A stretch of DNA of 64,000 nt from Acidobacteriota bacterium (GTDB lineage Bacteria > Acidobacteriota > UBA4820 > DSQY01). The notes under the pieces were generated by a model. That model did not search any database, had not been told where the DNA came from, and saw only the letters and a program-made list of their open reading frames with translations. The translations under genes and the position numbers were made by a program. Positions within the stretch are counted from its first letter, which is position 1. Each line of letters opens with the position of its first letter. The stretch is from positions 99,298 to 163,297 of the forward strand of contig JAJYLT010000001.1 of NCBI GenBank assembly GCA_021787565.1, read 5' to 3'. Below, piece after piece: positions 5,383-64,000 of this stretch.

Positions 5383-5462
5383 GGCTTTCTCCTACGCTGC
5401 CCGGCCTCGCGGGTCCGCAAAGGCGCCGTCCCGGGACGCGGCGTTTTACCGGGGCGGCTGAT

Positions 5463-13788: not shown

Positions 13789-14002
13789 ATACAGAGCGGC
13801 ATAAGTGAAGGCGCATAAGGTGGTGGGGCTTGGGGAGTATGCCGCTCTGTATTCGCGGGGAAGGCCCCACCCCTTGCGAGTGCGGCCCTGTGGGCCGCGC
13901 AAGGGCTGAGCCCTCCCCGCGGGCCCTACCGGGAGAGGCGCGGCGGCGCCTCCCCCGGACCCCCACCCGCATACAGCGCGCCGGACTTCCGTCGCGCTGT
14001 AT
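13789..14002. other. Two hairpins sharing ATACAG...CTGTAT stems (13789-13862 with a ~46-nt loop; 13971-14002)
   Basis: atacagagcggcat ...(46 nt)... atgccgctctgtat, and atacagcgcg ccggacttccgt cgcgctgtat. They lie in the promoter region of the kinase gene (9926-13516) and 3' of the convergent exported-protein gene. Confidence 0.3.
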
Positions 14003-14072
14003 AGACGGGAGAAAACAAAGCGGGAAGCCCGGGTGGGCTTCCCGCTGGATGGCGGAGCGGGGGAGGGCCGGA

Positions 14073-14633
14073 TCAGGTGGTGCCTCCGGCGGCCTTCCTC
14101 TTCATGTTCATGGGACAGTTCTTCATGCACTCGGCTCGCGTGTCCACGAGCTTCTTGAGGTTCTGCTCGTGGGACTTGAGGAAGGCGGCCCGGTCGGTGG
14201 CCGGCACGCCCTTCTTCATCGCGGCCAGATCGCTCTCGAGGGACTTGAAGGCCTCCTGCATGGCGGCTCGGTGCGGGCAGGCCTTCCCGGCCATCTTGCC
14301 GCCCTTCATGGCGGCGCGGCTCTTGACGCACTCCTCGCGAGCGGCCATCAGGGCCGCGAGGTTCTGCTCATGGGCCTTGAGGAAGGCGTCCTGCTCGCCG
14401 GCGGGGATGCCCTTCTCCATCACGGCAAGGTCGGTCTCGGCCGAGCCGAAAGCCTTCTGCATGGCCTCTCGCTGCGGGCAGGCGGCGCGCTTGGCGCAAC
14501 AGCCCTTCTGCCCCGCCGCGGCGGTCTTGCCCGCGCAGCAGCCGTGGCCCCCGGCTAGAGCGGCGGTGCCGAACACGACAAACGCGCCGAGAGCCAGCGC
14601 GGCCAAGAGAACGATAGGACGTCTGCTTTTCAT
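14073..14633 (-). CDS. Exported Cys/His-rich protein with two ~55-aa internal repeats (possible periplasmic metal-binding protein), function unknown
   Basis: Likely start MKSRRPIVLLAALALGAFVVFG (signal peptide) with a GGAGG RBS. Motifs GHGCCAGK and GCCAKRAACP, then repeats CPQREAMQKAFGSAETDLAVMEKGIPAGEQDAFLKAHEQNL..REEC and CPHRAAMQEAFKSLESDLAAMKKGVPATDRAAFLKSHEQNL..RAEC. Confidence 0.5.
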   Translation of the reverse strand: MKSRRPIVLLAALALGAFVVFGTAALAGGHGCCAGKTAAAGQKGCCAKRAACPQREAMQKAFGSAETDLAVMEKGIPAGEQDAFLKAHEQNLAALMAAREECVKSRAAMKGGKMAGKACPHRAAMQEAFKSLESDLAAMKKGVPATDRAAFLKSHEQNLKKLVDTRAECMKNCPMNMKRKAAGGTT

Positions 14634-14762
14634 GCAACCTCCTCTACGGTTTCCATCCCGACCCTTCGGGCCCGTCCGGTCCCGAACGCATCCAACGCTG
14701 AGTAAACCCGGGTACACGGCTTCTATTCCCCAACACTCTGGAGAATCCGGGCCATAACCCAC

Positions 14763-14791
14763 ATTTTAGCGGAACCGCTCCGCCCGGGCAA
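14763..14791 (-). promoter_or_regulatory. Putative sigma-70 promoter (TTGCCC-17-TAAAAT on the minus strand) for the Cys-rich protein gene
   Basis: Reverse complement reads ggcgTTGCCCgggcggagcggttccgcTAAAATgtggg, ~125 nt upstream of the start at 14633. Confidence 0.25.
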
Positions 14792-14804
14792 CGCCCCGCG
14801 GCAC

Positions 14805-14957
14805 CCCCGACTCCGCGATAGCGGCTCAACGCCTGCGTAGGAGCGGCGCCTCGCCGCGAACCGGGTGACCCTGCGACCAGGATGCGGTGCCCGCGTACGG
14901 TCCGTCGCGCCGGGGGCGGCGCTCCTACAAGTGCAATTCCATCGCGGAATTTGGGGG
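14805..14957. mobile_element. MITE-like palindromic element (~150 bp), copy A; terminal inverted repeats CCCC.A.TCCGCGAT / ATCGCGGAATTGGGGG with an internal long palindrome TGTAGGAGCGGCGCC...GGCGCTCCTACA
   Basis: Near-identical (~95%) to 22864-23015. No coding capacity. Confidence 0.55.
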
Positions 14958-15116
14958 CACCCAGGAGATCGGGAGACGCGAGGCGCCGAGAAGCCAAATA
15001 GCCGGGAGCACGGTGTTCCGGCTTCTTTCGACATCTCCTCATCTCCTCATCTCCTCATCTCGACATTCCGTCCGACGCCGCTTGCCTGGCCCGTTCCGCT
15101 GCATTAGGCTGGGGGC

Positions 15117-16301
15117 ATGAGCGGAAGCCGCACCTCCTGCAAGGCCGAGCGACGGGATCCGCCCGCGCCGTTGCGCCGGGCGCTCTTCGCGTGGCTCCTG
15201 CTCGGGGCCTGCCTGGCCGCGGCCGGTCAGGGCTTCGCCGGGGCGCCCGCGGGACATCGTCAGGCCGCCGCCCGGCACGCACCGCCCGCGCTCTACGATC
15301 GGGCCGAGTACGAGCGGGGACGGGCCCTCTGGGCCAAAGGGGAGCTGGGCGGCGCCGCGGAGGCCTTCGAGGGCATGCTCGGGGCGCCGGCGGGGGGGGA
15401 GGTCTGGACCTGGAGCGTCGCCCTTCTCTGCGAGAGCGGCGGCGTGGAGGGAATGGCTCGCTCCGTGAGCGGTCCCACGCCGGTCTTTCTCATCCCCGTG
15501 ACCTTCAAGGGGCGGGACTGCTACCGCCTCTGCGCCGGCCTGGAGCGGAGCCGCTCGGGAGTGCTCCGCCTGGGCAGGCCGAGGCTGGGGGACCCGGCCC
15601 TGCGCCCGTTCCCTGTTCAAATCCGCCCGCCCAGCGGCGGACATCAGGCGGCGGTACCCGTGTCCGAAGAGGCCCTGCCGCCGCACGATGCTCGGCCCCC
15701 AGAGGCTCCCTCTGAAAAGGTTCCTCCGCGGAAGGTCCTTCCTTCGGAACAGGCTGTCAGCCCGACGGTCGCGCCGGGCCAGGGGGCGGACCGTCCCCCG
15801 GATACCGGCGCACAGGCCGGTCCCCGGCAGGGAGCGGTTCATCAACCCGAAGGGGAGGTCTGGTTTCGGAAGGGGCTCCAGGCCTATCAGAGCGGGCGAA
15901 GGAGCGAAGCCGACGAGGATTTCGAGCGGGCCCTCGCGGCCGACCCCGAAAGGCCGGAGGTCCTGAACAATCTGGGGATCCTCCGGCTGGAAGAGAAGCG
16001 CTACACGGAGGCCGAGGCGCTCTTCCGCAAGGCCCTGGCGGTCGACCCCGAGTACGCGCGGGCCCATCTCAACCTGGCCGGCGCCCTGTGGGGGCAGAGG
16101 AAGCAGGCGGAGGCCGTGGCCGAGGCCCGGAAGGCCGCCGAGCTCGATCCTTCGGACGTCCATGCGCACCTCAGCCTGGCCTCCTTCTACCTGGCCCTGG
16201 GTCAGCGCCCCGAGGCGGAGGCGGAAGCGAAGCGGGTTTTGCTGCTGGATCCCGGCAACCTGCAGGCGAAGGCCTTTCTGGCCGCGGCGCCGAGTCCGTA
16301 G
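15117..16301 (+). CDS. Exported TPR-repeat protein with an N-terminal SPOR-like segment
   Basis: Signal peptide LFAWLLLGACLAAAGQG. The segment PVFLIPVTFKGRDCYRLCAGL is SPOR-like. The C-terminal half has typical TPR repeats (AEALFRKALAVDPEYARAHLNLAGALW..., AELDPSDVHAHLSLASFYLALGQ). Confidence 0.55.
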   Translation: MSGSRTSCKAERRDPPAPLRRALFAWLLLGACLAAAGQGFAGAPAGHRQAAARHAPPALYDRAEYERGRALWAKGELGGAAEAFEGMLGAPAGGEVWTWSVALLCESGGVEGMARSVSGPTPVFLIPVTFKGRDCYRLCAGLERSRSGVLRLGRPRLGDPALRPFPVQIRPPSGGHQAAVPVSEEALPPHDARPPEAPSEKVPPRKVLPSEQAVSPTVAPGQGADRPPDTGAQAGPRQGAVHQPEGEVWFRKGLQAYQSGRRSEADEDFERALAADPERPEVLNNLGILRLEEKRYTEAEALFRKALAVDPEYARAHLNLAGALWGQRKQAEAVAEARKAAELDPSDVHAHLSLASFYLALGQRPEAEAEAKRVLLLDPGNLQAKAFLAAAPSP

Positions 16302-46722: not shown

Positions 46723-46750
46723 CCGGGGGCCCCGTGCCCCCGGTTTCCTT
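46723..46750 (+). terminator. Rho-independent terminator-like hairpin immediately upstream of the group II intron insertion point
   Basis: CCGGGGGC-cccgt-GCCCCCGG followed by tttcctttgtggtgt. Confidence 0.45.
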
Positions 46751-46757
46751 TGTGGTG

Positions 46758-47396
46758 TGCCGGGCATGTTGAGCAGCTTGGGGGTGAGAGTCCCCTACCC
46801 AACCTGATGGAGGTGAAGGGTTAGCGAAGCGCAAGGGCGTCACCGTGAGGTGGGGTCTGAAGGAAGCGTGGAGCAAAAGCGCGAGCCGATGAACAAGAAC
46901 CGGATATGAGGCGTGAGCGCCGGACGAGCGGGCCACTAACCGCGAAGTCCATATCCATCAAGGGCGCGGGGCGTAAATCCGGCGGTTGCGCGCTGAAGGC
47001 GGCTGAACTTACCCCGGGAGGCCTGCGCCGTGTCCCGGAATTGGGACTGAGGGTGCCGTGAGGAGCCTTGATCGCGGTGCAGGAGTCAGCAGAGGGCATA
47101 GTAGGGGAGTGGTTCCCCGAAGGCCCGGACGGTGGGAGAGGCAAGTAGGACGCGGTCATGCCGGATGCAGAGCGGCGGAAAATCCAGGGTGACCTGGCCT
47201 TCGAAGCGGTGCTGGAGGGTGAAGCCCGAAGGCATGTGGAGTGAAGGGCCGAAGCATCTGGCACGGGCATCGAAACCGAAAGCCCGGCGGGGACACCCAT
47301 GCGGGTGTGACCGCACAACTCACCGAACCGCCGTGTACGGACCCGTACGCACGGTGGTGTGACAGGGAAAGCCCGCGAGGGCCTACCTATGTCGAT
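46758..47396 (+). mobile_element. ORF-less group II intron derivative (~640 bp; 5' domains plus domain V/VI-like 3' end, no IEP); boundaries approximate
   Basis: About 95% identical to 47397-47890 over its first ~490 bp and to 49189-49261 over its last ~105 bp (..gaaccgccgtgtacggacccgtacgcacggtggtgtgacagggaaagcccgcgagggcctacctatgtcgat). GTGTG at 46755-46759 fits the GUGYG 5' consensus. Confidence 0.6.
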
Positions 47397-49261
47397 TGCC
47401 GGGCATGTTCAGCAGCTTGGGGGTGAAAGTCCCCTGCCCAACCTGATGGAGGTGAAGGGCTAGCGAAGCGCAAGGGCGTCACCGCGAGGTGGGGTCTGAA
47501 GGAAGCGTGGAGCAAACGCGCGAGCCGATGGACAAGAACCGGATAGGAGGCGTGAGCGCCGGACGAGCGGGCAAAGGACCGCAAAGTCCATATCCATCAA
47601 GGGCGCAGAGCGTAAATCCGGCGGTTGCGCGCTGAAGGCGGCTGGACTTACCCCGGGAGGCCTGCGTCGTGTCCCGGAATTGGGACTGAGGGTGCCGTGA
47701 GGAGCCTTGATCGCGGTGCAGGAGTCAGCAGAGGGCATAGTAGGGGAGTGGTTCCCCGAAGGCCCGAACGGTGGGAGAGGCAAGTAGGACGCGGTCATGC
47801 CGGATGCAGAGCGGCGGAAAATCCAGGGAGTGCTGGCCTTCGAGCCCGCGCTAGAGGGTGAAGCCCCGAGGCGCGTGGACGAAGGGGCCGAACCGTTTGC
47901 TGCGGGAAGCGAGCCCGAAAGCCCGGCAAACACCGAGCGTCTGATGGAGGAGGTGGCTGAAGCGGAGAACCTGAGGAAGGCATTGAAGCGGGTGATGGCG
48001 AACAAAGGGTGCGCGGGAGTGGACCGGATGAGTTGCCGGGAGCTTCCTGAATACCTGAAAGCCCATTGGCCGCGGATACGGGAAGAGCTGCTTGCGGGCC
48101 GGTACAAACCCCAGCCAGTGCTTCGGGTGAAGATACCGAAGCCGGACGGCGGAATGCGGGACCTGGGCATTCCAACGGTGCTGGACCGGTTCATACAACA
48201 GGCTTTGCTGCAAAGGCTGCAAGCTCTCTGGGACGGGACGTTTTCGGACTCCAGTTACGGTTTTCGCCCTCACCGCTCGGCGCACCAGGCCGTTGAACGC
48301 GCGCAAGGCTACATCCGGCAAGGATGCGGGATTGTCGTGGACATCGACTTGGAGAAGTTTTTCGACCGCGTAAACCATGACGACCTCATGAACGAGATTG
48401 CGAAGCGGGTCACGGACAAGCGGGTGCTCAAGCTGGTGCGGGGGTATTTGAACGCGGGAGTGCTGGAAGACGGCCTGGTCAAGCCGGTGGATGAGGGGAC
48501 GCCGCAAGGCGGGCCTCTATCGCCGCTTTTGTCGAACATCGTGCTGGACAAACTGGACAAGGAACTTGAGAAGCGCGGACACCGGTTCGTGCGCTATGCG
48601 GACGACTGCAATATCTACGTGCGAAGCGAGCGCGTGGGGCAGCGGGTGATGGAAAGCATCGGCCGTTTCATCGAGAAGAAGCTGCGGCTCAAGGTCAACA
48701 AGGATAAAAGCGCGGTGGGGAAACCAAAAGAGCGTAAGTTTCTGGGCTTCAGTTTCACGGGCGGGAAGGAGCCGAGGCGGCGGATTGCGCCGAAGGCCCT
48801 CTATCGCTTCCGGGCAAGAGTGCGGGAACTAACGCGGCGAACCAGGGGAGCAAGGCTGGAGCGGATCATCGAGGAACTGGCGAAGTACCTCCGAGGATGG
48901 CGGGCCTATTTCGGATTCTGCCAAACACCCTCGGTGCTGAAAGAGCAAGACGAATGGCTCCGGCGGCGGCTCAGAAGCCTCATCTGGAAACGATGGAAGC
49001 GCGGGCGCGTGAGATTCCGGGAACTCAGAGCACGGGGTGTTGGGAAGGACCTGGCGGCGCAAACCGCCGGAAGCTCCCATAGCCCCTGGCGCATCAGCCA
49101 CAGTCCGGCGCTTACCTGCGCCTTTCCCAACGCCTTCTTCAAACGCCTTGGCCTGCCTTCACTGGCGTGAAGTGTAAGCTCAACCCGTCGAACCGCCGTG
49201 TACGGACCCGTACGCACGGTGGTGTGACAGGGAAAGCCCGCGAGGGCCTACCTATGTCGAT
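47397..49261 (+). mobile_element. Group II intron (full copy with intron-encoded protein), inserted in tandem directly after the ORF-less copy; boundaries approximate
   Basis: Shares its 5' ~490 bp and 3' ~105 bp with 46758-47396. Domain IV carries an RT/maturase ORF. A domain V-like hairpin ccgtgtacgg-accc-gtacgcacgg lies near the 3' end, and both copies end ...ctacctatgtcgAT. Confidence 0.7.
47944..49170 (+). CDS. Group II intron-encoded reverse transcriptase/maturase (no endonuclease domain)
   Basis: MEEVAEAENLRKALKRVMANKGCAGVDRMSCRELPEYLKAHWPRIREELLAGRYKPQPVLRVKIPKPDGGMRDLGIPTVLDRFIQQALL... shows RT blocks 0-7, including FVRYADDCNIYV (the YADD catalytic motif). The maturase X domain follows. 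Confidence 0.85.
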   Translation: MEEVAEAENLRKALKRVMANKGCAGVDRMSCRELPEYLKAHWPRIREELLAGRYKPQPVLRVKIPKPDGGMRDLGIPTVLDRFIQQALLQRLQALWDGTFSDSSYGFRPHRSAHQAVERAQGYIRQGCGIVVDIDLEKFFDRVNHDDLMNEIAKRVTDKRVLKLVRGYLNAGVLEDGLVKPVDEGTPQGGPLSPLLSNIVLDKLDKELEKRGHRFVRYADDCNIYVRSERVGQRVMESIGRFIEKKLRLKVNKDKSAVGKPKERKFLGFSFTGGKEPRRRIAPKALYRFRARVRELTRRTRGARLERIIEELAKYLRGWRAYFGFCQTPSVLKEQDEWLRRRLRSLIWKRWKRGRVRFRELRARGVGKDLAAQTAGSSHSPWRISHSPALTCAFPNAFFKRLGLPSLA

Positions 49262-49366
49262 TCATCCGCCCGCGCCACCCACTCCGCCACGCGCACACCG
49301 CTACACGCACCCCGCCCACCCCGCCCGCGTTGCACCCGCGCCGCCGAACGGGTATTCTGGTCCCGT

Positions 49367-49443
<77 letters not shown>

Positions 49444-49447
49444 GGTT

Positions 49448-50575
49448 TCAGCCGCCCTCAGAATTTCCGATGTTAGTTTTTTGTGAGTGCCGGACCGCGA
49501 GAACGGCCACGGCGTCCATGAGCATCTTTGGGGCGAGGTGGGCATAGCGGAGGGTCGTCTCGAAGTCCCTGTGCCCCAAAAGCTCCCGCACAACGGCAAG
49601 GTCCGCGCCGGCCATGATCGCCCGGCTTGCGAACGTATGCCGCAAGTCGTGAAACCGAAAGTCCTCGATCTTCGCGGCCGTGATCGCCGCTCGCCACTGC
49701 CGGGAAAGGTTGGCCTGTGTGCCCCCGTCCCCATTGGGGAAGACGAGGGCGCCCGTATTGATAGGCCGGGGTAGTTCATGCAGGACCGAAAGGGCCACCT
49801 CGTTCAAGAAAACGTGACGGTCCTTTTTCCCCTTGGCCCGCGTCGCCGGGATCGTCGCCACGGCGTTCGGTAGGTCAACGTCGCGCCAGGTAAGGCCGAG
49901 AATCTCGCCCCGCCTCGTACCCGTATGCAGAGCGAAAAGCACGATGCGCCGAAGGTAGGGCGAGCACTTCTTGAGTAGACGCTCCTCCTCATCGTCAGTG
50001 AGGAACCGAACGCGGCGGGGGTCTTCGCGGAAGAGTTTCACCTTTGCGGCGGGGTTGCCGTCCACGAGGCCCCACTGGCCGGCCAGGGTGAAGAGCCGCT
50101 TGAGCCGGGCAAGGGAAATATCCACGCAGCGCTTACCGACCAGCCGGGGCGCGGCGCCCTCTTTCTCTCCTGCCTTGCTCTTGGTGTCCCGAGCCGCCTC
50201 CTTCATGCGTTCGATCTTGTACCGTTCCACGTCGCCGCCCGTGATCTTGTCCAGGGTTCGTCCCTTGAAGCAGGGTGAGGCCTTCCACGAGTCGGCAACC
50301 CACCGGTCCATCTTGAACGTGGAGGCGCGGCAGTTGGCTTCCGACCACTCCAGGAAGCGCTTAACGGCTTGCTCGAAGGACGTATGCACTTCCTTGCGGC
50401 GGTCCCGGAAGTGATCGTCTATGATCTGCCCGCGAACGCTTTGGAGCAACGCGCGGGCCTCGGTGCGGTTGCGGCAAATTTTCCGAACCCATCGGCCCTC
50501 GTACATCCACGAGGCCCGGCACCGGCCGTCCGGTAAGACCAGAATGCCTTTTTCGCGCCTCTGTTGGGTTGCCAC
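49448..50575 (-). CDS. int: Tyrosine-type site-specific integrase (phage integrase family)
   Basis: C-terminal catalytic region ...HTGTRRGEILGLTWRDV...FHDLRHTFASRAIMAGADLAVVRELLGHRDFETTLRYAHL (R..H.R..H..Y) and an N-terminal SAM-like domain. Confidence 0.85.
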   Translation of the reverse strand: MATQQRREKGILVLPDGRCRASWMYEGRWVRKICRNRTEARALLQSVRGQIIDDHFRDRRKEVHTSFEQAVKRFLEWSEANCRASTFKMDRWVADSWKASPCFKGRTLDKITGGDVERYKIERMKEAARDTKSKAGEKEGAAPRLVGKRCVDISLARLKRLFTLAGQWGLVDGNPAAKVKLFREDPRRVRFLTDDEEERLLKKCSPYLRRIVLFALHTGTRRGEILGLTWRDVDLPNAVATIPATRAKGKKDRHVFLNEVALSVLHELPRPINTGALVFPNGDGGTQANLSRQWRAAITAAKIEDFRFHDLRHTFASRAIMAGADLAVVRELLGHRDFETTLRYAHLAPKMLMDAVAVLAVRHSQKTNIGNSEGG

Positions 50576-52900: not shown

Positions 52901-54187
52901 TCATGGCGCACCCTGCCAGCGGGCACAAGGGCCGAAGTATTCGGCCCTCACGATACCGAGCCGGCCGTCCTGGTTCTTGTCCACGATAATCTCGCCGGGC
53001 GTGATTGGATCACCGCTGCGGCGGTTCCACCGATGAAGGAGGAGGACACCAGAGGCCACTTGCTCAAGCCGCCCGGTCCCTTCGAGGTCTGCCCGCGTCG
53101 GGCGGTCTCTCTCGGAATCGGTCTCAGCGCCTCGGTTGAGCTGGGAGCCCACCACGAGGGCCACGCGCTCCCGTACGGCCAACGCCGCGAGCTTCTGAGC
53201 CGTCAAGGTGCGCCCCTCATATCCGCTTTCAGCCCGTCCGAAATCGATCAACTGGAAATAGTCCACCGTCACGAGGTCCAGGCCTCCCAGCGCTTCCCTG
53301 GCCTGCCGGATGCGCCACGCCAGCTCGTCAACGCTGGCGCCGGGGCAGTCATGGAAAGCGAGGTTCGGCGCCTCGTGGAGTTCTGCCCATGCCCGGCTGT
53401 AGGCCTCCCGCTGCGCCTCGTCCATCTCCACCGGCTTCCTGATACTGGCAAGGAGAACGCCGGAACGGATGCTGAGGAGTCGCCACAGGTTGCGGACTGC
53501 CCCCATTTCTAGGGCGAGGTGAACGCACCGGCGCCCACGCCTCACGTTGCGGTCAAGGAGCAAGAGCAAGAAGCTGGTCTTGCCTACAGACGGCCGCGCG
53601 CCGACAAACCACAGCTCCCCCGGTTGGAGGCCAGGGCTTAGGAGCCCGTCAAGATCATGGAGGCCCGTGGGAAGCCCCGGCGCCTTCCCTTCCAGCCGAC
53701 GCCGGAAATCGGTCTCTTCCTCGTCTGCCCAACGCTTGGCGGAGTATACGCCGCCAGCGGACCGCGCCGAGGTCTCACCGGACAGCCGTTGCAGCTCCTG
53801 AAGGGCTTCTTCGGCGGTTCGCTCCTGTGCGATGGTGCCGAGCCGCAGCGCCCCCTCGATAATCCGCCGGCGCTGCGCATCTTGCTGGATGATTGCGGAG
53901 TAACGAGCCACCGAGGAAAGCCGGGGCACACCGTCCACGAGGCCTGAAACGGTCTCCGCACCTCCCACGGCTTCAAGCTCGCCCGCCCGGTGTAGGTGGT
54001 CAGTCACGCTCACCACGTCGGCGCCGTCGCCAGCGCACGCAAGAATTGCGCGCCAGACGCGCCGGTGAGCCGGCAGGCCGAAGTCGTCGGCCTGGAGGCC
54101 TTCGGCCGTAGCCGTGAGGGCGTTCTTTTGGAGCACGGCACCGAGGAGTGCGCGCTCGGCTTCAATGGGCACAGGCAGAGGCTTCAC
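52901..54187 (-). CDS. DnaB-like replicative DNA helicase
   Basis: N-terminal DnaB-type region (IEAERALLGAVLQKNALTA...), Walker A GARPSVGKTSFLLLLL, Walker B-like DLVTVDYFQLI, and a RecA-like C-terminal domain. Confidence 0.7.
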   Translation of the reverse strand: MKPLPVPIEAERALLGAVLQKNALTATAEGLQADDFGLPAHRRVWRAILACAGDGADVVSVTDHLHRAGELEAVGGAETVSGLVDGVPRLSSVARYSAIIQQDAQRRRIIEGALRLGTIAQERTAEEALQELQRLSGETSARSAGGVYSAKRWADEEETDFRRRLEGKAPGLPTGLHDLDGLLSPGLQPGELWFVGARPSVGKTSFLLLLLDRNVRRGRRCVHLALEMGAVRNLWRLLSIRSGVLLASIRKPVEMDEAQREAYSRAWAELHEAPNLAFHDCPGASVDELAWRIRQAREALGGLDLVTVDYFQLIDFGRAESGYEGRTLTAQKLAALAVRERVALVVGSQLNRGAETDSERDRPTRADLEGTGRLEQVASGVLLLHRWNRRSGDPITPGEIIVDKNQDGRLGIVRAEYFGPCARWQGAP

Positions 54188-56233: not shown

Positions 56234-56282
<49 letters not shown>

Positions 56283-56649
56283 CGCTCCCCAAAGGGGATG
56301 ATCCTCCCCCCTCTCGGCCCTCCGCTCCGCACCGTCTCGCCCTTCCCTTGGAAAGCCCTACCCAGGCCCCGACCCGGGGCGGGAATCCAGCCCCGCATAC
56401 CGGGCTCCACGGTGTTTGGGATCAACCCGCCGTTGTGGGAGCGATCGCCCGATCGCGATGCTTCGAAGGAGGACTCACACGCTTCGGGAGAGACAGGCGC
56501 CCTCGCCTGTCGAGGCTGCGGGGGCCTTTGCAGGCGCATAGCGGCGCACAGGAGTCCGCCTCTCCCCGTGGGGCGGGCGCCCCCCGCCCGCCGCTTCGGA
56601 GGCCCTCCCTCACCCGTAGCGGCCTATGCCCGCCACCGGCCGTCGGCCG

Positions 56650-56731
56650 CAACGAGTTGCGGCCGCACCAGTCCCTAGGCTATTTGAGTCCGCAGCAGTA
56701 TCGGGCTCAACGACGCGACCAGGTGGCTTGA
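56650..56731 (+). pseudogene. 3' remnant of a transposase (integrase-core C-terminus)
   Basis: ...GRNELRPHQSLGYLSPQQYRAQRRDQVA* resembles the conserved C-terminal tail of IS3/IS481-type transposases; the upstream frame is nonsense. Confidence 0.3.
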
Positions 56732-56763: not shown

Positions 56764-57129
56764 TCAGCCGCAAGCCGGCGGATCGGCGAGGCCTTCGGAG
56801 AATCCTCCATAGACCAGTGCAGTCGGTCCCGCCTGAAGATGGCCCACCCGGAAGGCCGGCAGGCAGAGGAACCACGCCAGCGCCTGGAGGGTCAGCCCCG
56901 GATGGTCGCCCGGCGCGTGCCTCGCCTCGCGCTCCCGCGTCCGGAACCCGAACACGGGCCCGGGCAGGTATCCGAAGGCCCCCTTCCCGCCCCGCGCGTT
57001 CTTGAAGAGCCACAGCGCCGTGTGGATCGGGAACGTGTCCCTCCGCCCCCGCACCAGCACTTCCCACAGATTCACCGGAGGGTCGAACTCCTCCGGCGCA
57101 AAGGATCGAAGTTTGCGAACACCTGGCAT
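56764..57129 (-). CDS. Hypothetical small protein, paralog 1 (MPGVRKLRS..PEE..PP.NLWEVL.RG..DTFPIHTALWLFKNA)
   Basis: Shares a 44-nt identical DNA stretch and ~75% aa identity over the first 50 residues with 58815-58997. Confidence 0.4.
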   Translation of the reverse strand: MPGVRKLRSFAPEEFDPPVNLWEVLVRGRRDTFPIHTALWLFKNARGGKGAFGYLPGPVFGFRTREREARHAPGDHPGLTLQALAWFLCLPAFRVGHLQAGPTALVYGGFSEGLADPPACG

Positions 57130-57140
57130 CGTGCTCTCTC

Positions 57141-58148
57141 TTACCCCTTCTTGAGGACGGCACCCTGATTGATCCGTTTCTCCAGGGCGGCCAACTCCGT
57201 GGCGATCTCCTCGAAGGTCGGCACCTGACCAAATAGCATGGCCCGCATGGACTGATAGTCTTTCTGCAGCTCGGCGGCATGGTGTTCCGGCGGGAGCAGC
57301 CTCAGGCTTCCAGGCTTGGCCTCCTCGTACCTGGCCCAGGGGCAACGATAGAACCGCATCTTGAACTGCGCGACGTCCTGCAAGAGATTCATCCGCGCCA
57401 GTGCCTGCTCGCGAATCGGCGAGCGGCTCAGCCTGTACAGGTCGTAGTAGTGCCGAGAGTACCGGGGCGGCAGAGGCTTCGCCAGTGCTCGATGGGCTTC
57501 CTGATGCAGTATGGTGGCCTTCTCCCAGAACGTGCGTTCCGCCGCGATGGTTCGTACCGTGCTCTCCGCCTGGCTAAAGAGGTGGGGGAACTGTTCGGCC
57601 GCGTATGGGCGGATCGTTCGTGGCTCGTTCGGGACCCAGGCGGCGATGGGGCCAATTTCCAGCCGGATCTGCGGCTGGACGGCCGCGAGCGAGAAAGCTC
57701 TGGGATAGGGGATGAGGGTCTCTTGCCCGTTCGCCTCGACCTCTAGGCCTGTCCCGAGGCGTTCGCCCAGGGCCGGACGAATGGCCGGCACGAAATCCCG
57801 CGCCAGAAACTCAGCCGTGCGCTGGTTGGATTCCTTGCCGAAAGCGTCTTGCTTCGTCGCGCTTCGCTTCGCCCAAGGTTCGTCAGGGGAATACCCCAAC
57901 GTTCGCCAATCCAGGATCAGATCGATGTCTTCGGAGAATCTCTCGATGGCCCCGAAGGCCTTGGAAAGGCTCGTTCCGCCCTTGAAGGCCAAGTGGTCCC
58001 TCCACGGGCTCTCCTGGAACAGGTAGTCCAACACCCAGCAGACCCAGAAGTCCTTTTCGACGATGGCCTCATGCACGGCCATCTTCTGTGCGGCTGCCCT
58101 GAAGAGATCGCGTCGATCTTTCTCCGGCCGCCGGGCCATCTCACGCAT
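57141..58148 (-). CDS. abiEii: Nucleotidyltransferase AbiEii/AbiGii-family toxin (type IV toxin-antitoxin / abortive infection)
   Basis: 335 aa. ...MAVHEAIVEKDFWVCWVLDYLFQES...LAFKGGTSLSKAFGAIERFSEDIDL matches DUF1814-type nucleotidyltransferase toxins. It overlaps the upstream antitoxin gene by 8 nt. Confidence 0.65.
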   Translation of the reverse strand: MREMARRPEKDRRDLFRAAAQKMAVHEAIVEKDFWVCWVLDYLFQESPWRDHLAFKGGTSLSKAFGAIERFSEDIDLILDWRTLGYSPDEPWAKRSATKQDAFGKESNQRTAEFLARDFVPAIRPALGERLGTGLEVEANGQETLIPYPRAFSLAAVQPQIRLEIGPIAAWVPNEPRTIRPYAAEQFPHLFSQAESTVRTIAAERTFWEKATILHQEAHRALAKPLPPRYSRHYYDLYRLSRSPIREQALARMNLLQDVAQFKMRFYRCPWARYEEAKPGSLRLLPPEHHAAELQKDYQSMRAMLFGQVPTFEEIATELAALEKRINQGAVLKKG

Positions 58149-58814: not shown

Positions 58815-58997
58815 TCAAGCCACTTGCTTCGCGAGGTGGGTGAACAACCCGCGGTAGCCCTCAGCGTTCTTGAAGAGCCACAGCGCCGTGTGGATCGGGA
58901 ACGTGTCCTTCTGTCCCCGCTCCAGCACCTCCCACAAGTTCGCCGGAGGGATGACCTCCTCCGGCACAGACGACCTCAGCTTGCGGACTCCTGGCAT
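58815..58997 (-). CDS. Hypothetical small protein, paralog 2 (60 aa)
   Basis: MPGVRKLRSSVPEEVIPPANLWEVLERGQKDTFPIHTALWLFKNAEGYRGLFTHLAKQVA. Confidence 0.4.
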   Translation of the reverse strand: MPGVRKLRSSVPEEVIPPANLWEVLERGQKDTFPIHTALWLFKNAEGYRGLFTHLAKQVA

Positions 58998-59010
58998 AGT
59001 ACCCTCTTTA

Positions 59011-59721
59011 TTACCCTCTTTTCGGGCTGCTACCCTCTTTGCGTTTCCGCGGGACACCCGGGTTATGCCTGAGGCCGACGAACGCGCATCGGCACCGTGG
59101 GCCCTCCAAGGCCCGTAGGACCCTTTGCCGGCACCCGAGGACGGCCAACACTCCTGCCGGCCCGGCTTCCGGCCGCCGGGTGCTCACGGATTTCTCTTGT
59201 TGATGAGATTCACCAGGACGCGGCAAAGGAGGTCCTTTTCCTGGGGCCGGCTCTCGGCGATGAGCAGGGTCATCGCCACGAGGGCATTGTCGGCGATGCG
59301 CTTGCCGCCGTCGGCCCGGTAGAGGGCGCCGTTCGTTCGCCGTGTAGCCTTTCACCAGATGGTCCTTCAGCACTCGCGTCGCCCAGATGCGGAATTGGGT
59401 GCCCTGCAAAGATTTGACCCGGTAGCCCACGGAAATGATGACGTCCAAGTTGTAAAGCGCCACGGGCTTGTCGGAGGAAGGAATGTGCACATTTTGCACG
59501 TTGCCCTTTTCGGGCAGCTCTCCCTCCCGGAAGATGTTGCGCAGATGCTTGGTGATCACCGAGCGCTCCCGGCCAAAGAGCTCGGCCATCTGCGCCTGGG
59601 TCAGCCAGACAGTCTCGCGCTCCAGCCGTACCTCGAGGGTGGAACCGCCGCGCTTCGTACGGTACAGAGCGATTTCCCCGCGGGCTCTCGAACCGTGAGC
59701 GCTATCTCCCATCAGGTCCAC
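59011..59721 (-). pseudogene. RhuM-family protein gene, frameshifted/truncated
   Basis: The N-terminal 130 aa are typical RhuM (EVRLERETVWLTQAQMAELFGRERSVITKHLRNIFREGEL...VISVGYRVKSLQGTQFRIWATRVLKDHLVKGYTANERR). The frame then becomes Pro/Arg-rich nonsense, and an alternative frame gives ..ALYRADGGKRIADNALVAMTLLIAESRPQEKDLLCRVLVNLINKRNP*. Confidence 0.55.
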
Positions 59722-59923: not shown

Positions 59924-62900
59924 CTACTCCTCCTCAAACCCCATGCTGTCGAACTTGAGCGTCCTTGCGTTTTCGGTGACGGTGCGGACCAGGCTCTCTG
60001 AAGCCCCCCCGGGAACCCTGGCGTGAATCTCCAGAGTCACCTCAACCTCGGCATCCTTCTGGGACTGGAGGTGGGCGACCACCTCTTCGGCGATGCTGGC
60101 CGCGTCCTTGCCCAATCGCGTGGGGCTGAGTCTCACGGATCCGAAGAAGCGCCTGGGGCGCGGGGGTGGAGGAATCGTGGGCACGCTCTCATCTTCTGTC
60201 GTACCGAGAGGCAAATGGTCTGTTTCAGTGGACTCCGTTGCTGGGGTAGTCTTACCTGGGGGTGGCGTCGAGTCGGCGTCGAGCTGTCTGCGCGCCACTT
60301 CGGCCCTTATGAGCAACCCGCGAAGGTCATCCGTTCCGAGTGGCAGGTGCTGTCCCGCGTGAATGCCCCTGTACCGACCGGAAGCCTCGTCGTAGCTGTC
60401 GGCGAAGGCGAAGGAATCCGTCTCCCAGGTGAGCAGGGCGGCTCCATCGCGAATGGAGTGGATGAGCACCGACGGTGCGCTGAGCCGGGGCAGGTAGCAA
60501 TAACGCGCAAAATCCTCGGCAAGCTGTCGGACACTGACGCTGTCCCCACGCCAGAGCGGCACGCGGTCCAGCTCCATGCGCAGCCGTGTACCGGCCAGCG
60601 CCGTGAAGAGAAGCTCCTCGTTGCGGAGCTTTTTGCCGGCCCGCAGGGCCAAGGCGTCCTGCCCCGTGAGCCGGATCGCCTGCCAGTCCACGGTCGATTG
60701 CGGGGTCTGCTGGGTGGGCACCAGGAGCCACTGGTAGGTCTCGGGCAGCCGGGCCTTCACCGTGCCATCCGCTGCGGACCGTCGCGTCTCAGCCTGTTTG
60801 ACCTGGTGCGGGGTCAGATTGAGCTGTTCCTTCTCAGACAAGATGGATTCCCACGCCAGGAAAGAGCGCACGGCCTCGTCCAGGTCCTGCAGGCGCGTCT
60901 TGTCGGCGGCCAGGAAGACCAGGGCATTCTGATAGGTGCGCGGGACGTTCCCTTTGAGAGACAGAATGGCCTTCGCTTCCGTCTCGGCGGGGCTTGAGGG
61001 TTCCTTGCTGTAAGGGTGGCCGAGGCCGAGCACAACCAGCCCCGCCTCGAAGACATCCTGCACGTCCTGGCTTGCGTGGGGCGTCGCGTGGACTCTGGCG
61101 AAGTCTCCCTTGGTTTCCAGGTCTCTCTTGATGCGCTTCTCCACCTCCATGGCCACCTTGTCGGGGTCACGCTTGAGCTGTTCGGCGCGGTCCTCCGCAA
61201 CCTTGGTGACGGTGGGCTGGGTGGAGTACCAGTAGCGCGCTCCGTCCTGGTAGAGGAAGGTGGCAGTCCCGGCCAACCGGCGCAGGGCATCCCCGAAGAC
61301 GGCTGGCGATTCACCGGGCATCACGCAGCCCAGCTTCACCTGCCTGTCCTCCAAGCCGTGGTGCGCCGCATCGGCCGTGGGAGCCGAACCCAGGTAGATG
61401 GTCCGGGCCACCCGCCGGCAGGCGGCGTGCTTGCCGAGGTTGGGGATCTCCCCGTCCAGCCGCAAGGGCAGCGAGTCGGGACCGTCCACGTCCTTTTCGA
61501 TGACTGGTACCCAGTTGTCCGAGAGGTAGCGGGTCAGCTCGAACTGGACGCGGGGATCGTCGATAGGAATATTCGCCGGCAGGATGAGCGGGTTCCGGTC
61601 CCCCTTTTCCCAGAGGCTGTGGATGACCGCCGCCATGAGGCGCAACACGCCCCGGGTTCGCTGGAACTTCGCGAGCGTCGACCAGTCGTTGTAGAGCCGG
61701 TCGAAGATCTCCGGGTGGATGGGATAGGCCGCCTTGATCCGCTTCTCGTAGTCGGCGGTCCGGCACTCCGGGGGGAACTCCTGCTGCTGGCTCCGGTAAA
61801 AGTCTCCAAAGCCCTGGGCCACGACGTCCCGATCCTTGAACCGGTCGGGTCCGGCCAGGGGCTCGAAGAGCCGCCGCCTCACGATCTCGAACCCCTCCTC
61901 CGCACTGGCAGGCCGCCAGGAGGATTCCAAGCGCCCGACCACGTTTCGCAAGCGCTCCAGGGCCTGCCGCCCCCGCTGGCCTCCCACTTCCGAGTCGTCG
62001 GCTTGGGTGTGGGGGGACCCCGTCGTGTCCGAAGCGGGAAGGCTGATGACCAGCAGGCAGTTCTTCGCCAGCTTGGCGGATTCGGTGAGGACCTGGGCGA
62101 AGGAGAACTGCGTTTCGAAGCTCCCCGCGGGGAGGTCGCCCTCGTCGTGGAGCTGGCGGGCGTAGGCCACCCACTCGTCGATGAGGATCAGGCAAGGCCC
62201 GTACTCCTTGAAGAGCTCGCGCAGCGCGTCGCCCGGGCTCGTGGCCTTCTCGTCGTCGGCCTGGATGCGCTTGAAGGCCTTCTTCCCCCCGAGTTGCCAC
62301 GCGAGTTCGCCCCACAGCGTGCGGATGACGCAGCCGTCGGGCTTGGTGACGGGGTTGCCGGGGGAGATCTTGTTCCCCACGAGCACGACCCGTTTGGCGG
62401 CGGGCAGCTTCTGGGTCCCGGCCTCGCGGAGGATCGCGTCCACCCCGGCCAGCTCCGTGGGGGAGACGCCGGAGAACAGGTGATAGAGGGCCAGCATGGA
62501 GTGGGTCTTGCCGCCGCCGAAGTTGGTCTGGAGCTGGACCACCGGGTCTCCGCCCTTGCCCGAAAGCCGGTGGATGGCCCCCACCAGGAGGCCTTTCAGG
62601 CTCTCCGTCAGGTAGGTGCGCCGGAAAAACTCCACGGGGTCCCGGTACTCGTCGGTCCCCTCGCCCAGGTGCACCTGCCACAGGTCCGCCGCGAACTCGG
62701 CCTGCTGGTACCGTCCGGAGGCCACGTCCGGGTGGGGGGTGACGATCTCCCGCCAGGGTTTGAGGGTTCCGGTCGCCTGGCTCTCGATGGCCGTCCCGGC
62801 GCTCTTGCGCTTCTCGCTGCGCACCTGCTCGTCGAACCTCAGGCGTAGGAGCTCCATCTTGAGCTTCTCCACCTCCTCGGCCTGGGGTGCGCTGACGGCC

Positions 62901-63265
62901 GCCAGCAAGCGGCTGGCCGAGTCGAGGGCGCGGTAGGCGTCGTCGGACGAGAAGGTGCTCTGGTGGGCCCAGCGGTTCCGGATGTCCCGCAGCTCGCTGA
63001 CCAGGGTCCGCTCGGCCTGCCCGAGGGTCTTCTTGAAGACCGTGTTCCACTGGTTCCAGAGAACGGCCAGGAGCGAGGCCGCATCCCACGGAGGCTCCTC
63101 GGTGCCGCTGAAGAGCTTCTCCTGCGTCGGCCCCACCGCCTCGCGGGCGAACTCCAGCCACCGCTGGGCGTGCTGGGCCTTCAGCTCGCGCTCGACGAAG
63201 GGCGCTAACCCGGACTTGAGCAGATCCAATGCCTTGCCGACGCGGTCGTAGTTCGTGATGGCCAT
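59924..63265 (-). CDS. Large Swt1-like HEPN domain fused to a DUF499/BrxC(PglY)-like P-loop NTPase (1113 aa); candidate defence effector
   Basis: The N-terminal ~130 aa carry the HEPN Rx4-6H motif (LRDIRNRWAHQ). Walker A NFGGGKTHSMLALYHLF at ~aa 250 and Walker B CLILIDEWVAY at ~aa 360. There is a long alpha-rich C-terminal region with a Pro-rich linker (PTIPPPPRPRRFF). It lies in a defence island next to AbiE and RhuM genes. Confidence 0.6.
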   Translation of the reverse strand: MAITNYDRVGKALDLLKSGLAPFVERELKAQHAQRWLEFAREAVGPTQEKLFSGTEEPPWDAASLLAVLWNQWNTVFKKTLGQAERTLVSELRDIRNRWAHQSTFSSDDAYRALDSASRLLAAVSAPQAEEVEKLKMELLRLRFDEQVRSEKRKSAGTAIESQATGTLKPWREIVTPHPDVASGRYQQAEFAADLWQVHLGEGTDEYRDPVEFFRRTYLTESLKGLLVGAIHRLSGKGGDPVVQLQTNFGGGKTHSMLALYHLFSGVSPTELAGVDAILREAGTQKLPAAKRVVLVGNKISPGNPVTKPDGCVIRTLWGELAWQLGGKKAFKRIQADDEKATSPGDALRELFKEYGPCLILIDEWVAYARQLHDEGDLPAGSFETQFSFAQVLTESAKLAKNCLLVISLPASDTTGSPHTQADDSEVGGQRGRQALERLRNVVGRLESSWRPASAEEGFEIVRRRLFEPLAGPDRFKDRDVVAQGFGDFYRSQQQEFPPECRTADYEKRIKAAYPIHPEIFDRLYNDWSTLAKFQRTRGVLRLMAAVIHSLWEKGDRNPLILPANIPIDDPRVQFELTRYLSDNWVPVIEKDVDGPDSLPLRLDGEIPNLGKHAACRRVARTIYLGSAPTADAAHHGLEDRQVKLGCVMPGESPAVFGDALRRLAGTATFLYQDGARYWYSTQPTVTKVAEDRAEQLKRDPDKVAMEVEKRIKRDLETKGDFARVHATPHASQDVQDVFEAGLVVLGLGHPYSKEPSSPAETEAKAILSLKGNVPRTYQNALVFLAADKTRLQDLDEAVRSFLAWESILSEKEQLNLTPHQVKQAETRRSAADGTVKARLPETYQWLLVPTQQTPQSTVDWQAIRLTGQDALALRAGKKLRNEELLFTALAGTRLRMELDRVPLWRGDSVSVRQLAEDFARYCYLPRLSAPSVLIHSIRDGAALLTWETDSFAFADSYDEASGRYRGIHAGQHLPLGTDDLRGLLIRAEVARRQLDADSTPPPGKTTPATESTETDHLPLGTTEDESVPTIPPPPRPRRFFGSVRLSPTRLGKDAASIAEEVVAHLQSQKDAEVEVTLEIHARVPGGASESLVRTVTENARTLKFDSMGFEEE

Positions 63266-63315
63266 GGCTTGCTCCTCACTCTGGCGTTCTCTTCCCCATC
63301 CCCGAATTCCCCGGA

Positions 63316-64000
63316 TCAGGCGGTGTCGCCCGGGCCGATCCTGGCCCGCTGGACCATCCGCTCCACTTCGGGGGTCATGTTCACGGCGCTCAGCTCCACC
63401 TGTGGGTGGGCCTGTGCGAAGACCCTGAATAGCTCATCGGCGAAGGCCTGTCCGATCTCCACCACCTCGGCGAAGTCAAGTATCACGTGGCGGAACCGCT
63501 CGAAGCGCATGGAGAGCCGCTTGGCCTGGGAGCGCGAGACCAGCTTCTCCCCCTCGTACTGGGCCAGGCGGACGGGCACGATGGTCTTGGCGAAGGTGTA
63601 CTCTTCGGGCGCCGCAAACTCGTCGAAGACCGACTTGAGGGTGCGGGGGCTGTCGTTGGCCAGCCACATGTTGACCGTGGTTCCCGAGGTCCCTTCGGGT
63701 CGGTCCGCCAGGAGATCCAGCGGGTACTTGTCGTGAAAGAAGGCGAGGCTGCCCGAGCGGATGAGGAACGAGTCGAAGACCCGCGAGGCGAAGAAGATGC
63801 CCTCTCCCGTGTGGTTCGCGGGGTCGGTGGTCAGCTTGCCCTTGGCGAGTTCGAGGATGGATTCGCGCGGGTCGTAAAGGCCGAAGGACCTCTGGATCTT
63901 GAGGAAGATACCTTCCCCCGAGTCGCGGACCATCCCCAAGGTCTTCACCGCGTCGCGCCAGACCCCGACCTCCACCGTGGGGGAACCCGAGTGGTCCACG
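63316..64000 (-). CDS. GHKL-type ATPase (HATPase_c-like G-boxes) with a C-terminal STAS-like (DUF4325-like) domain; partial, N-terminus beyond the window end
   Basis: HTGEGIFFASRVFDSF and GTSGTTVNMWL resemble G2/G3 ATP-lid boxes. The C-terminal HVILDFAEVVEIGQAFADELFRVFAQAHPQVELSAVNMTPEVERMVQRA is STAS/anti-sigma-antagonist-like. It lies 50 nt upstream of, and co-oriented with, the HEPN-DUF499 gene. Confidence 0.45.
   Translation of the reverse strand, partial: VDHSGSPTVEVGVWRDAVKTLGMVRDSGEGIFLKIQRSFGLYDPRESILELAKGKLTTDPANHTGEGIFFASRVFDSFLIRSGSLAFFHDKYPLDLLADRPEGTSGTTVNMWLANDSPRTLKSVFDEFAAPEEYTFAKTIVPVRLAQYEGEKLVSRSQAKRLSMRFERFRHVILDFAEVVEIGQAFADELFRVFAQAHPQVELSAVNMTPEVERMVQRARIGPGDTA

Follow-up and report, generated by a model that had tools for sequence, protein, structure and literature searches.

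A HEPN-DUF499 ATPase gene from an Acidobacteriota bacterium as the probable 3′ end of an Hma operon with embedded cargo

The Hma system (HmaA/HmaB/HmaC) was named by Payne et al. 2021, was first described as the "Ava_2192" HEPN-AAA+ RM operon (Anantharaman et al. 2013) and is the Type-1 DUF499-centred BREX-related (BR) system of Rakesh & Krishnan 2026. Its HEPN-fused ATPase has been reported from 1370 taxa, and Hma loci are known to collect embedded defence genes. In Halomonas, HmaA acts against T4 by nicking and degrading invader DNA that lacks the modification, and Liu et al. found that HmaA alone suffices against T4 and saw no effect of HmaB. The sole biochemical model of a DUF499 ATPase comes from MANTIS (Shaw et al. 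2026 preprint), where the ATPase loads the methylase, brings about hemimethylation and sets off restriction; the small MANTIS co-regulator MtsB is given as a DUF3780 protein in PMC12839542 and as DUF3870 in the preprint. The C-terminus of BR ATPases has been reported to be RRM-like and not coiled-coil, a difference from BREX BrxC/PglY. CapK/CapS regulators ("controller of adjacent pathways") are found beside immune genes: of 443 CapKS cases, 88 lie directly downstream of an RM system (Chambers et al. 2026).

Here, we compare with these systems the end of a 64,000-nucleotide stretch of DNA from an Acidobacteriota bacterium (the whole stretch is called the window). Positions 59924-64000 hold, on the minus strand, a large ORF and, 50 nt upstream of it, a second gene that runs off the window. 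The features referred to below are as follows.

59924..63265, minus strand: hmaC, encoding a HEPN(Swt1)-DUF499 AAA+ ATPase of 1113 aa, the terminal gene of the operon (ORF, PADLOC, Pfam)
62891..63235, minus strand: Swt1-type HEPN domain, aa 11-125 (Pfam PF18731)
62963..62980, minus strand: HEPN motif R96-N97-R-W-A-H101, RxxxxH (alignment of 80 HmaC sequences)
62498..62518, minus strand: Walker A GGGKTHS, aa 250-256 (same alignment)
62171..62191, minus strand: Walker B LILIDEW, aa 359-365 (same alignment)
63266..63315, minus strand: 50-nt spacer with the hmaC ribosome-binding site GAGGAG at 63272-63277 (sequence)
63316..64000, minus strand: 3′ part of the wHTH-GHKL-DUF4325 gene, encoding the C-terminal 227 of 345 aa; the first 118 codons and the promoter lie past the window end

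The earlier note on this DNA had read the two genes as a novel defence module belonging to no named system. Its domain calls were sound. A Pfam search of the 1113-aa protein matched both HEPN_Swt1 (PF18731, E 7.8e-39, profile positions 1-115 of 115) and DUF499, and the co-oriented upstream gene does encode a DUF4325 STAS-like domain. The defence role is upheld as well, while the claim of novelty falls, since the large protein has a full-length match to the PADLOC profile of HmaC from Hma, a named restriction-like phage-defence system (1138 bits; aa 167-1112 on profile positions 2-941 of 941). At least 583 relatives of HmaC were confirmed in genome contigs; the best 80 of these are 67-74% identical to it across the full length, and no PDB sequence matched. 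In an alignment of 80 HmaC sequences, the one from the window and 79 homologs, the HEPN residues R96, N97 and H101 are conserved in 79, 80 and 79, respectively, and GGGKT of Walker A and D363 and E364 of Walker B are present in all 80. Judged by its conserved Rx4-6H motif, the HEPN domain of HmaC, of the Swt1/Abi2 clade, is predicted to be an RNase.

The operon continues past the window end, as the earlier note had anticipated. Exact sequence look-up with the 1113-aa HmaC returned no record, and the DNA past the edge was taken from identical public contigs found via the product of the upstream gene (P0001) and then via P0121. Where contig L081 overlaps the window, identity is 100%, as it is between contigs L084 and L081 across an overlap of 8365 bp. 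The minus-strand order reconstructed from these overlapping contigs is hmaA, embedded genes, hmaB, the wHTH-GHKL-STAS gene and hmaC. The hmaB gene (L081 6990-9878) lies directly upstream of the GHKL gene in the same operon, and its product, an N6-adenine methyltransferase, matches the PADLOC HmaB model at 1497 bits and Pfam DUF1156 and MethyltransfD12. HmaA is a SNF2 helicase with a C-terminal PD-(D/E)XK/NOV_C nuclease; its C-terminal half alone was recovered (L084 1-1776, where the contig ends; 730 bits, profile positions 575-1169 of 1176), and this half contains the NOV_C nuclease domain (E 6.8e-20). Between hmaA and hmaB lie, in order, a gene for a Tiamat-like GHKL protein that is split into two ORFs of 685 aa and 723 aa, a 334-aa ORF, a gene for a GmrSD_N/DUF262 protein and a 191-aa ORF.

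The three core genes on one strand, with embedded genes between them, are in the canonical Hma order, and the arrangement is common among relatives: at the loci of the best 80 of at least 583 HmaC homologs, HmaB precedes HmaC in 73 and HmaA precedes HmaB in 41. The gene identities, their order and the intact catalytic motifs are those of Hma, and the architecture is conserved in relatives. Altogether, we consider it very likely that a complete Hma operon, a Type-1 DUF499-centred, BREX-related and RM-like system with embedded cargo, has its 3′ end at positions 59924-64000. The main result is a correction: the apparent new HEPN-motor system is a truncated view of the common, named Hma and not a discovery. 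The locus also illustrates cleanly, in a natural setting, how Hma can carry defence genes embedded as cargo, here Tiamat-like, GmrSD-like and regulator-like genes.

Like other Hma loci, this one encodes a HEPN-fused ATPase, a DUF1156 methylase and a SNF2-NOV_C helicase-nuclease in three core genes in canonical order with defence genes embedded between them, and it belongs to a horizontally spread family with about 70% identity across many phyla. It differs from other Hma loci only in its cargo, namely the split Tiamat-like gene, the GmrSD_N gene and, in the hmaB-hmaC slot, the wHTH-GHKL-DUF4325 gene. With MANTIS/Gao_RL (Type-2 BR) it shares a DUF499 ORC/Cdc6-like AAA+ ATPase, a DUF1156 methylase and a helicase-nuclease. 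Unlike MANTIS, it has neither MtsB nor a PLD(HKD)-helicase, with no Pfam match to DUF3780 or PLD among the upstream ORFs scanned, and it instead carries NOV_C on the helicase and HEPN on the ATPase.

The likeness to BrxC/PglY of BREX lies in a DUF499-family AAA+ core with wHTH/alpha+beta modules after it and in an associated N6-adenine methylase. The DUF499 family includes BrxC, and the literature holds Type-1 BR to be evolutionarily related to Type-3 BREX, both of which would fit a canonical BREX or Pgl system with the large protein as its ordinary BrxC/PglY. We give this reading hardly any credence. The top PADLOC model is HmaC, and no BrxC model is among the matches listed; the NCBIfam model DUF499_antiphage reaches 183.6 bits against a cutoff of 1200; the DUF1156-type methylase and the NOV_C helicase are hallmarks of Type-1 BR; and in the literature the DUF499 ATPases of BR systems form clades apart from BrxC. 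The earlier note had found no canonical BREX/Pgl partner in the window, and the phosphatase PglZ, iSTAND/BrxB, BrxA and BrxL are absent both there and among the ORFs annotated in ~20 kb upstream, a result that also sets the locus apart from Type-3 BR. The note had also allowed that a canonical BREX operon upstream would make the protein an ordinary BrxC: a canonical operon is indeed there, and it is that of Hma, not BREX.

How do the two genes at the window end relate to each other? They are co-oriented, and a promoter/terminator scan of the minus strand found no promoter- or terminator-like site in the 50-nt spacer (63266..63315). Their adjacency recurs at L004, L063 and ~17 metagenome loci, and VapK/VapS/VapC offers a precedent in which a GHKL kinase and a STAS protein gate an RNase toxin. 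These observations would suit a novel system in which the two genes act autonomously, with no need of a methylase or helicase, in abortive infection or RNA targeting. Such a system is nonetheless very improbable, as the same locus carries HmaB and HmaA, the GHKL gene is absent from 78 of the 80 HmaC-homolog loci just described, and the pair is accompanied by an upstream HmaB or HmaB remnant wherever enough upstream sequence exists. Where a short HmaC match comes after a GHKL gene, it is the remnant of an HmaC that has been truncated, deleted or frameshifted, and no HEPN partner recurs there on its own. We also rejected a module of GHKL-STAS with a standalone Swt1-HEPN protein, for which the candidates proved to be 5′ hmaC fragments ending after 89-136 residues (L091, which is frameshifted, L104 and L130) or HmaC remnants with internal deletions (L106 and L140). 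Nor is GHKL-STAS a constant component of Hma: the gene occurs in only 2 of the 80 loci (the best 80 of at least 583) and is therefore an occasional embedded accessory. The dedicated pairing that the earlier note proposed does not survive these counts, and about three quarters of the GHKL-gene loci with at least 2.5 kb on each side (21 of 29) lie outside Hma and type I RM systems alike.

P0001, the 345-aa product of this gene, is composed of a wHTH, a SpoIIAB/RsbW-like GHKL kinase domain and a DUF4325 STAS-like domain, in that order. DNA-binding, kinase-like and STAS-like modules were the only ones recognised, with no nuclease, pore or NADase effector domain among them. The PADLOC v2 models include none for the gene, and phmmer searches of the PDB returned only weak matches to ArsR-type wHTH domains; no solved STAS protein was matched, and neither CapS nor VapS gave a chain at E <= 1. 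From manual reading of the alignment, the site equivalent to the phospho-serine of SpoIIAA/CapS appears to be E-I-G-Q, which would leave the canonical serine position unoccupied. The family comprises at least about 8000 proteins at E < 1e-5; it is large, highly conserved and essentially unstudied, and P0001 is the only modestly new element of the locus. At its own promoter, the gene has a conserved promoter/operator-like triple box, made of GACAAT boxes phased at 22 nt (GACAAT-N16-GACAAT-N16-AACAAT), and no further copy of this pattern occurs in the window, L081 or L084. The distance of ~7 nt from the -10 box to the ATG suggests a leaderless transcript. The wHTH-GHKL-STAS gene is a self-contained cassette with its own putative promoter/operator.

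A cassette of this kind could be functionally unlinked to Hma, an independent single-gene defence or selfish element for which RM-like operons are just a safe place to insert ("guilt by embedding"). The conserved promoter-like element that it carries and the many unrelated contexts of its homologs are consistent with this idea, as are neighbours of the non-Hma copies that include TA genes, integrases and housekeeping genes, the survival of intact copies beside degraded Hma loci, and the standing of Hma as a hotspot for embedded defence genes. We nevertheless regard it as somewhat unlikely. P0001 lacks a recognised effector domain; the gene recurs in the same slot and orientation, directly upstream of hmaC or hsdR (the hmaB-hmaC slot of Hma and the hsdS-hsdR slot of type I RM); its homologs include an Hma-associated clade; and regulators such as CapK/CapS typically have a wHTH/kinase/STAS architecture of this kind.

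Two kinds of regulator invite comparison. The C proteins of type II RM systems are ~80 aa long and consist of an HTH only. Much as in those systems, the gene for P0001 would be a small DNA-binding gene that lies just upstream of a restriction-side gene and is transcribed with it, with repeated operator-like boxes over its own promoter and a -10-to-ATG spacing that suggests a leaderless transcript; unlike C proteins, P0001 adds kinase-like and STAS-like modules. Like CapK (Chambers et al. 2026), P0001 unites an HTH, a SpoIIAB/RsbW-like GHKL kinase domain and a STAS-type domain in one protein, although the order is wHTH-GHKL-STAS and that of CapK is HTH-STAS-GHKL. The gene also resembles CapK/CapS in adjoining immune operons and in the operator-like site that is repeated at its promoter. 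Unlike CapK/CapS and VapK/VapS/VapC, it is a single gene, followed 50 nt downstream by hmaC, and the annotated ORFs of the locus include no second STAS gene of the capS/vapS type.

A role for the GHKL/STAS protein as a regulator or sensor is plausible. By analogy with CapK/CapS or the C proteins, the gene may be a signal-responsive transcriptional switch acting on its own promoter and, via read-through, on hmaC, a possibility that we hold tentatively, at a little less than an even chance. A more specific proposal is that P0001 is an undescribed single-chain CapK/CapS relative for RM-like systems, binding the GACAAT boxes until an infection or DNA-damage cue de-represses HEPN-HmaC or HsdR; this seems to us unlikely, if conceivable. 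In a stronger version, the STAS-like domain would mask the HEPN RNase directly, as VapS masks VapC. If the controller reading is true, P0001 would set the timing of Hma's abortive arm or license it, and control of the toxic arm of Hma and type I RM systems by such genes would carry the CapK/CapS paradigm of 2026 over to RM-like defences.

For the Hma operon as a whole, we favor a model, drawn largely from the literature, in which HmaB would mark self DNA and the ORC/Cdc6-like AAA+ protein HmaC would act as scaffold and loader, coupling site recognition to methylation and restriction as its Type-2 sibling MtsA does in MANTIS. HmaA would nick and degrade unmodified invader DNA, as Halomonas HmaA does with T4, and the N-terminal HEPN RNase of HmaC could serve as a back-up abortive effector. 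The GHKL/STAS gene is a non-core cassette that recurs, in RM-like systems, just ahead of the gene for the ATPase or motor protein.

An AbiE module and an integrative element adjoin the Hma locus, and the defence-island context described in the earlier note is borne out. Around the copies of the GHKL gene outside Hma, a PADLOC search of 100 ORFs from 19 loci (E <= 1e-10) gave only scattered defence matches: mad3-like in 4 ORFs, mad8-like in 3 and SoFic in 2, together with type I RM, DRT and PDC-S01/S08. Matches to AriA in 3 ORFs near non-Hma copies are probably ABC-F ATPases.

The 1113-aa protein at the end of the window is HmaC, the DUF499 ATPase of Hma, and what the earlier note had taken for a new, unnamed system is the known Hma system seen cut off by the window edge. 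The domains and motifs which that note had read in this protein are real, as are the STAS-like domain of the co-oriented upstream gene (DUF4325 in the 227 in-window residues, Pfam, E 4.5e-12) and the 50-nt gap between the two genes.

Features of the Hma operon
59924-63265, minus strand: hmaC ORF, 1113 aa
hmaC aa 11-125: Swt1-type HEPN (Pfam, E 7.8e-39)
hmaC aa 96-101: HEPN motif RNRWAH
hmaC aa 250-256: Walker A GGGKTHS
hmaC aa 301-810: DUF499 (Pfam, E 2.1e-28)
hmaC aa 359-365: Walker B LILIDEW
50 nt between the upstream gene end (63316) and hmaC, minus strand: spacer with GAGGAG ribosome-binding site
63316, running off the window end, minus strand: 3' end of the upstream (GHKL/STAS) gene, 227 in-window residues
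P0001 (full-length GHKL/STAS protein) aa ~10-70: wHTH, ArsR/MarR-like
P0001, Bergerat-fold domain: N-box E113, N117; G1 box D144-x-G-x-G148; G2 box G183-E-G-I-F-F
P0001, C-terminal: DUF4325 domain
L081 (public contig past the window edge) 9953-10002, operon strand: triple box, ~350-400 nt past window coordinate 64000
L081 1-3524 and L084 (a further such contig) 1846-6043: Tiamat-like ORFs, between hmaA and hmaB

The HmaC profile of PADLOC-DB is covered end to end (positions 2-941 of 941, 1138 bits); the generic DUF499 model of the same database gives only 158 bits, and the NCBIfam DUF499_antiphage equivalog, whose cutoff is 1200, gives 183.6 bits. No record identical to the 1113-aa protein turned up in an exact look-up. 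Hma, for "helicase, methylase, ATPase", is a three-gene candidate defence system named by Payne et al. 2021, with 1638 instances in 26 phyla (PMC8565338), and was reclassified in 2026 as the Type-1 DUF499-centred BREX-related (BR) system (PMC12839542). Since the ATPase is HEPN-fused in 1370 of the 2446 taxa with Type-1 BR (PMC12839542), the HEPN-DUF499 architecture is already published and common.

At least 583 relatives were confirmed when one genome for each GTDB species was scanned, and the best 80 of these, at 67-74% identity and full length, lie in Acidobacteriota, Planctomycetota, Nitrospira, Chloroflexota, proteobacterial groups, Bacillota and a MAG labelled Methanobacterium, a patchy, horizontally transferred distribution as expected of a defence system. 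When the window protein was aligned with 79 homologs, the HEPN residues R96, N97 and H101 were found in 79, 80 and 79 of the 80 full-length sequences, and GGGKT and the D-E pair of Walker B in all 80. HmaB lies upstream on the same strand in 73 of the best 80 loci, and four of the other seven had less than 2.4 kb of upstream sequence. The HmaB-HmaC gap is at most 150 nt in 42 of these 80 loci and more than 500 nt in 29, and the HmaA-HmaB gap exceeds 500 nt in 36 of 41; these wide gaps agree with the published share of Hma loci in which genes are embedded (62.7-66.5%). At three loci (L027, match 10001-16083; L066, 5437-10040; L053, 10001-14531) the HmaC match is 1.2-2.7 kb longer than the 3.3-kb gene, which suggests insertions inside hmaC, for example of a mobile element or intron.

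The earlier note had expected further components past the window end, and hmaB and the 3' part of hmaA were recovered there. The truncated upstream ORF, used as the query of a homology search, led to P0001, a 345-aa protein with 100% identity over the window part; its contig, L081, matches window 62501-64000 at 100% identity and reaches 10.3 kb farther. Directly upstream of the P0001 gene, across a 122-nt gap, lies hmaB, whose 962-aa product (HmaB profile, 1497 bits) carries Pfam DUF1156 and a D12-class adenine-methylase motif; farther upstream are a 191-aa ORF, a 567-aa GmrSD_N/DUF262 protein resembling PDC-M55C and HEC-05, and a 334-aa ORF. Two overlapping co-oriented ORFs follow, of 685 aa, matching the SACS/GHKL-like N-terminal part of Tiamat TmtA, and of 723 aa, matching its middle; embedded in the operon, they represent either one Tiamat-like gene broken by a split or frameshift or a variant made of two genes. 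L084, reached from the linking protein P0121, is 100% identical to L081 across 8365 bp and at its start encodes the last 591 aa of HmaA (730 bits over profile positions 575-1169 of 1176), with the NOV_C (DUF3883) PD-(D/E)XK nuclease among them. The gene order is hmaA, Tiamat-like N, Tiamat-like middle, 334 aa, GmrSD_N, 191 aa, hmaB, P0001 gene, hmaC. Because the locus combines a helicase-REase fusion with a DUF1156 methylase, and DUF3780 and PglZ are absent from it as reconstructed, it is Type-1 BR.

The gene identities, their order, the intact catalytic motifs and the conserved architecture are observed here; the roles in the mechanism we infer from established work: HmaB would methylate self DNA, HmaC, an ORC/Cdc6-clade AAA+ protein, would act as loader and scaffold, HmaA would be the effector and the HmaC HEPN domain a back-up suicide RNase (PMC3710099, PMC12839542). 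In MANTIS, the Type-2 sibling, loading of the DUF1156 methylase falls to the DUF499 ATPase MtsA, turnover comes from ATP hydrolysis, and the helicase-nuclease is triggered when DNA is recognised (10.64898/2026.09.23.753747). The PD-(D/E)XK nickase of HmaA is needed for anti-T4 defence (PMC11232893); in the sole experimental study of Hma, HmaA by itself was enough against T4, and no role was shown for hmaB or hmaC.

The GHKL/STAS gene is an accessory of Hma and not a partner. The earlier note had proposed that it works together with the HEPN-DUF499 protein; a two-gene system made of this pair does not survive the comparison of loci: in a tblastn search with the window's partial protein, only two of the 80 HmaC loci (the best 80 of at least 583) gave matches, L004 and L063. 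L004 carries, in order, HmaA (1707 bits), GmrSD_N with a RiboL-PSP HEPN, HmaB (1501 bits), a 342-aa wHTH-GHKL-DUF4325 homolog of P0001 (64% identity over the in-window part) and HmaC. At L063 (8312-9670) the corresponding frame runs on without a stop into a minimal nucleotidyltransferase domain (NTP_transf_2/PDC-S09-like), giving a 452-aa ORF; this may be a fusion to an antitoxin-like module of the HEPN/MNT type, or else an artefact of assembly or of ORF calling. The P0001 family is large (at least 7976 proteins at E <1e-5), its N-, G1- and G2-box residues are invariant among 38 homologs, PADLOC v2 holds no model for it, and DUF4325 is nearly absent from the literature under that name, with three incidental mentions only.

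A second sample comprised 80 metagenome loci encoding P0001 relatives (57-97% identity), 29 of them flanked by 2.5 kb or more on each side. HmaC or a remnant lies downstream, and HmaB or a remnant upstream where the sequence suffices, in ~17 of the 80 (6 of the 29); in ~5 (2 of the 29) the gene sits between type I HsdS and HsdR, and in the rest (21 of the 29) the context is variable, with toxin-antitoxin genes, integrases, ABC-F, GST and others. Pairing with standalone Swt1-HEPN genes was considered and rejected, the short downstream HmaC matches being remnants of hmaC with truncations, deletions or frameshifts. A neighbour-joining tree groups most of the Hma-embedded copies together and puts the type I RM copies in a separate block, so that the association is stable within a sub-clade, yet not obligatory.

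The closest functional precedent for the GHKL/STAS gene is CapK/CapS, in which CapK (HTH-STAS-GHKL) is an ssDNA-activated kinase and CapS (STAS-wHTH) a repressor that jointly control adjacent immune operons; 88 of 443 such pairs lie immediately downstream of an RM system. A related precedent is VapK/VapS/VapC, in which an RNase is masked by the STAS protein (PMC13373217). The GHKL/STAS protein does not share the domain order of CapK, and this locus has no CapS gene. By analogy, we tentatively favor a model in which the gene is a CapK/CapS-like or C-protein-like controller over one, to our minds rather doubtful, in which it is an independent defence gene embedded in the operon. Around 19 copies in other contexts, 100 ORFs scanned with PADLOC gave scattered defence matches only. 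At five loci (L091, L104, L106, L130, L140) hmaC has suffered truncation, internal deletion or a frameshift and only fragments of hmaB remain, yet the GHKL/STAS gene is intact, which hints that it is kept independently of Hma function.

The remaining interest lies in this regulator-like embedded gene and its conserved operator. The P0001 gene is preceded by three boxes, GACAAT-N16-GACAAT-N16-AACAAT, with a 22-nt start-to-start period, the last two of which form a predicted sigma-70-like promoter (TTGACA-18-AACAAT). The box-pair pattern (1 mismatch allowed) matches twice here and in 0 of 200 shuffles, and searches of the window, L081 and L084 found no further triple-box copy. The layout in the Hma-associated clade is TTGACAA-N15-TTGTCAA-N18-TACAAT-N7-ATG, in which the -35 element forms the second arm of an inverted repeat and 7 nt separate the -10 element from the start codon, a spacing that suggests a leaderless mRNA. 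The composite motif occurs in 41 of 77 loci (18 of the 21 in an Hma context, 23 of the 56 others) versus 34 of 8410 background windows (0.4%). In the genome that the window comes from, the -10 box is overlapped by the annotated ATG, so translation may start at the second Met (M5), the residue that lines up with the first position of most homologs. From its sequence, the region looks like an autoregulated, possibly leaderless promoter/operator, and the cassette would thus bring a promoter of its own, probably an autoregulated one. Since no promoter- or terminator-like element was found in the 50-nt spacer, this predicted promoter should also feed hmaC.

The surroundings of the operon in the window are as follows.

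46747-47397: first of two tandem group II introns, ~650 nt, without ORF, directly ahead of the full copy
47386-49262: full group II intron
47797-49170: its RT/maturase
49367-49445 and 56234-56282: tRNA-Pro(TGG) and exact repeat of its 3' 49 nt
49448-50575, minus strand: tyrosine integrase of the tRNA-Pro element
52901-54187, minus strand: DnaB-like helicase of the tRNA-Pro element
56989-57152 and 58857-59020: 164-nt direct repeat, 80% identity
57141-58782: AbiEi/AbiEii cassette
59011-59721: RhuM-like ORF adjoining the AbiE cassette

The tRNA-Pro repeat copies, 6.8 kb apart, bound a small integrative element. Such a tRNA-linked element had been described as part of the defence context; it is present, but AbiE, RhuM and Hma all lie beyond its bounds, so the Hma island is not that element itself. 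The RhuM assignment holds as a profile match, but over positions 17-66 of 252 only and with the remainder of the ORF apparently out of frame, so this ORF is probably a remnant. The direct repeat flanks the AbiE cassette, which may have been inserted or recombined at its present site. Both group II introns have Rfam D1-D4 matches and share repeats of 300 nt (93%) and 85 nt (95%). The plus-strand ORF at 56237-56731 ends in '...NELRPHQSLGYLSPQQYRAQ', which we take to resemble the C-terminus of an rve-type (IS3/IS481-like) transposase, in keeping with the transposase remnant noticed earlier.
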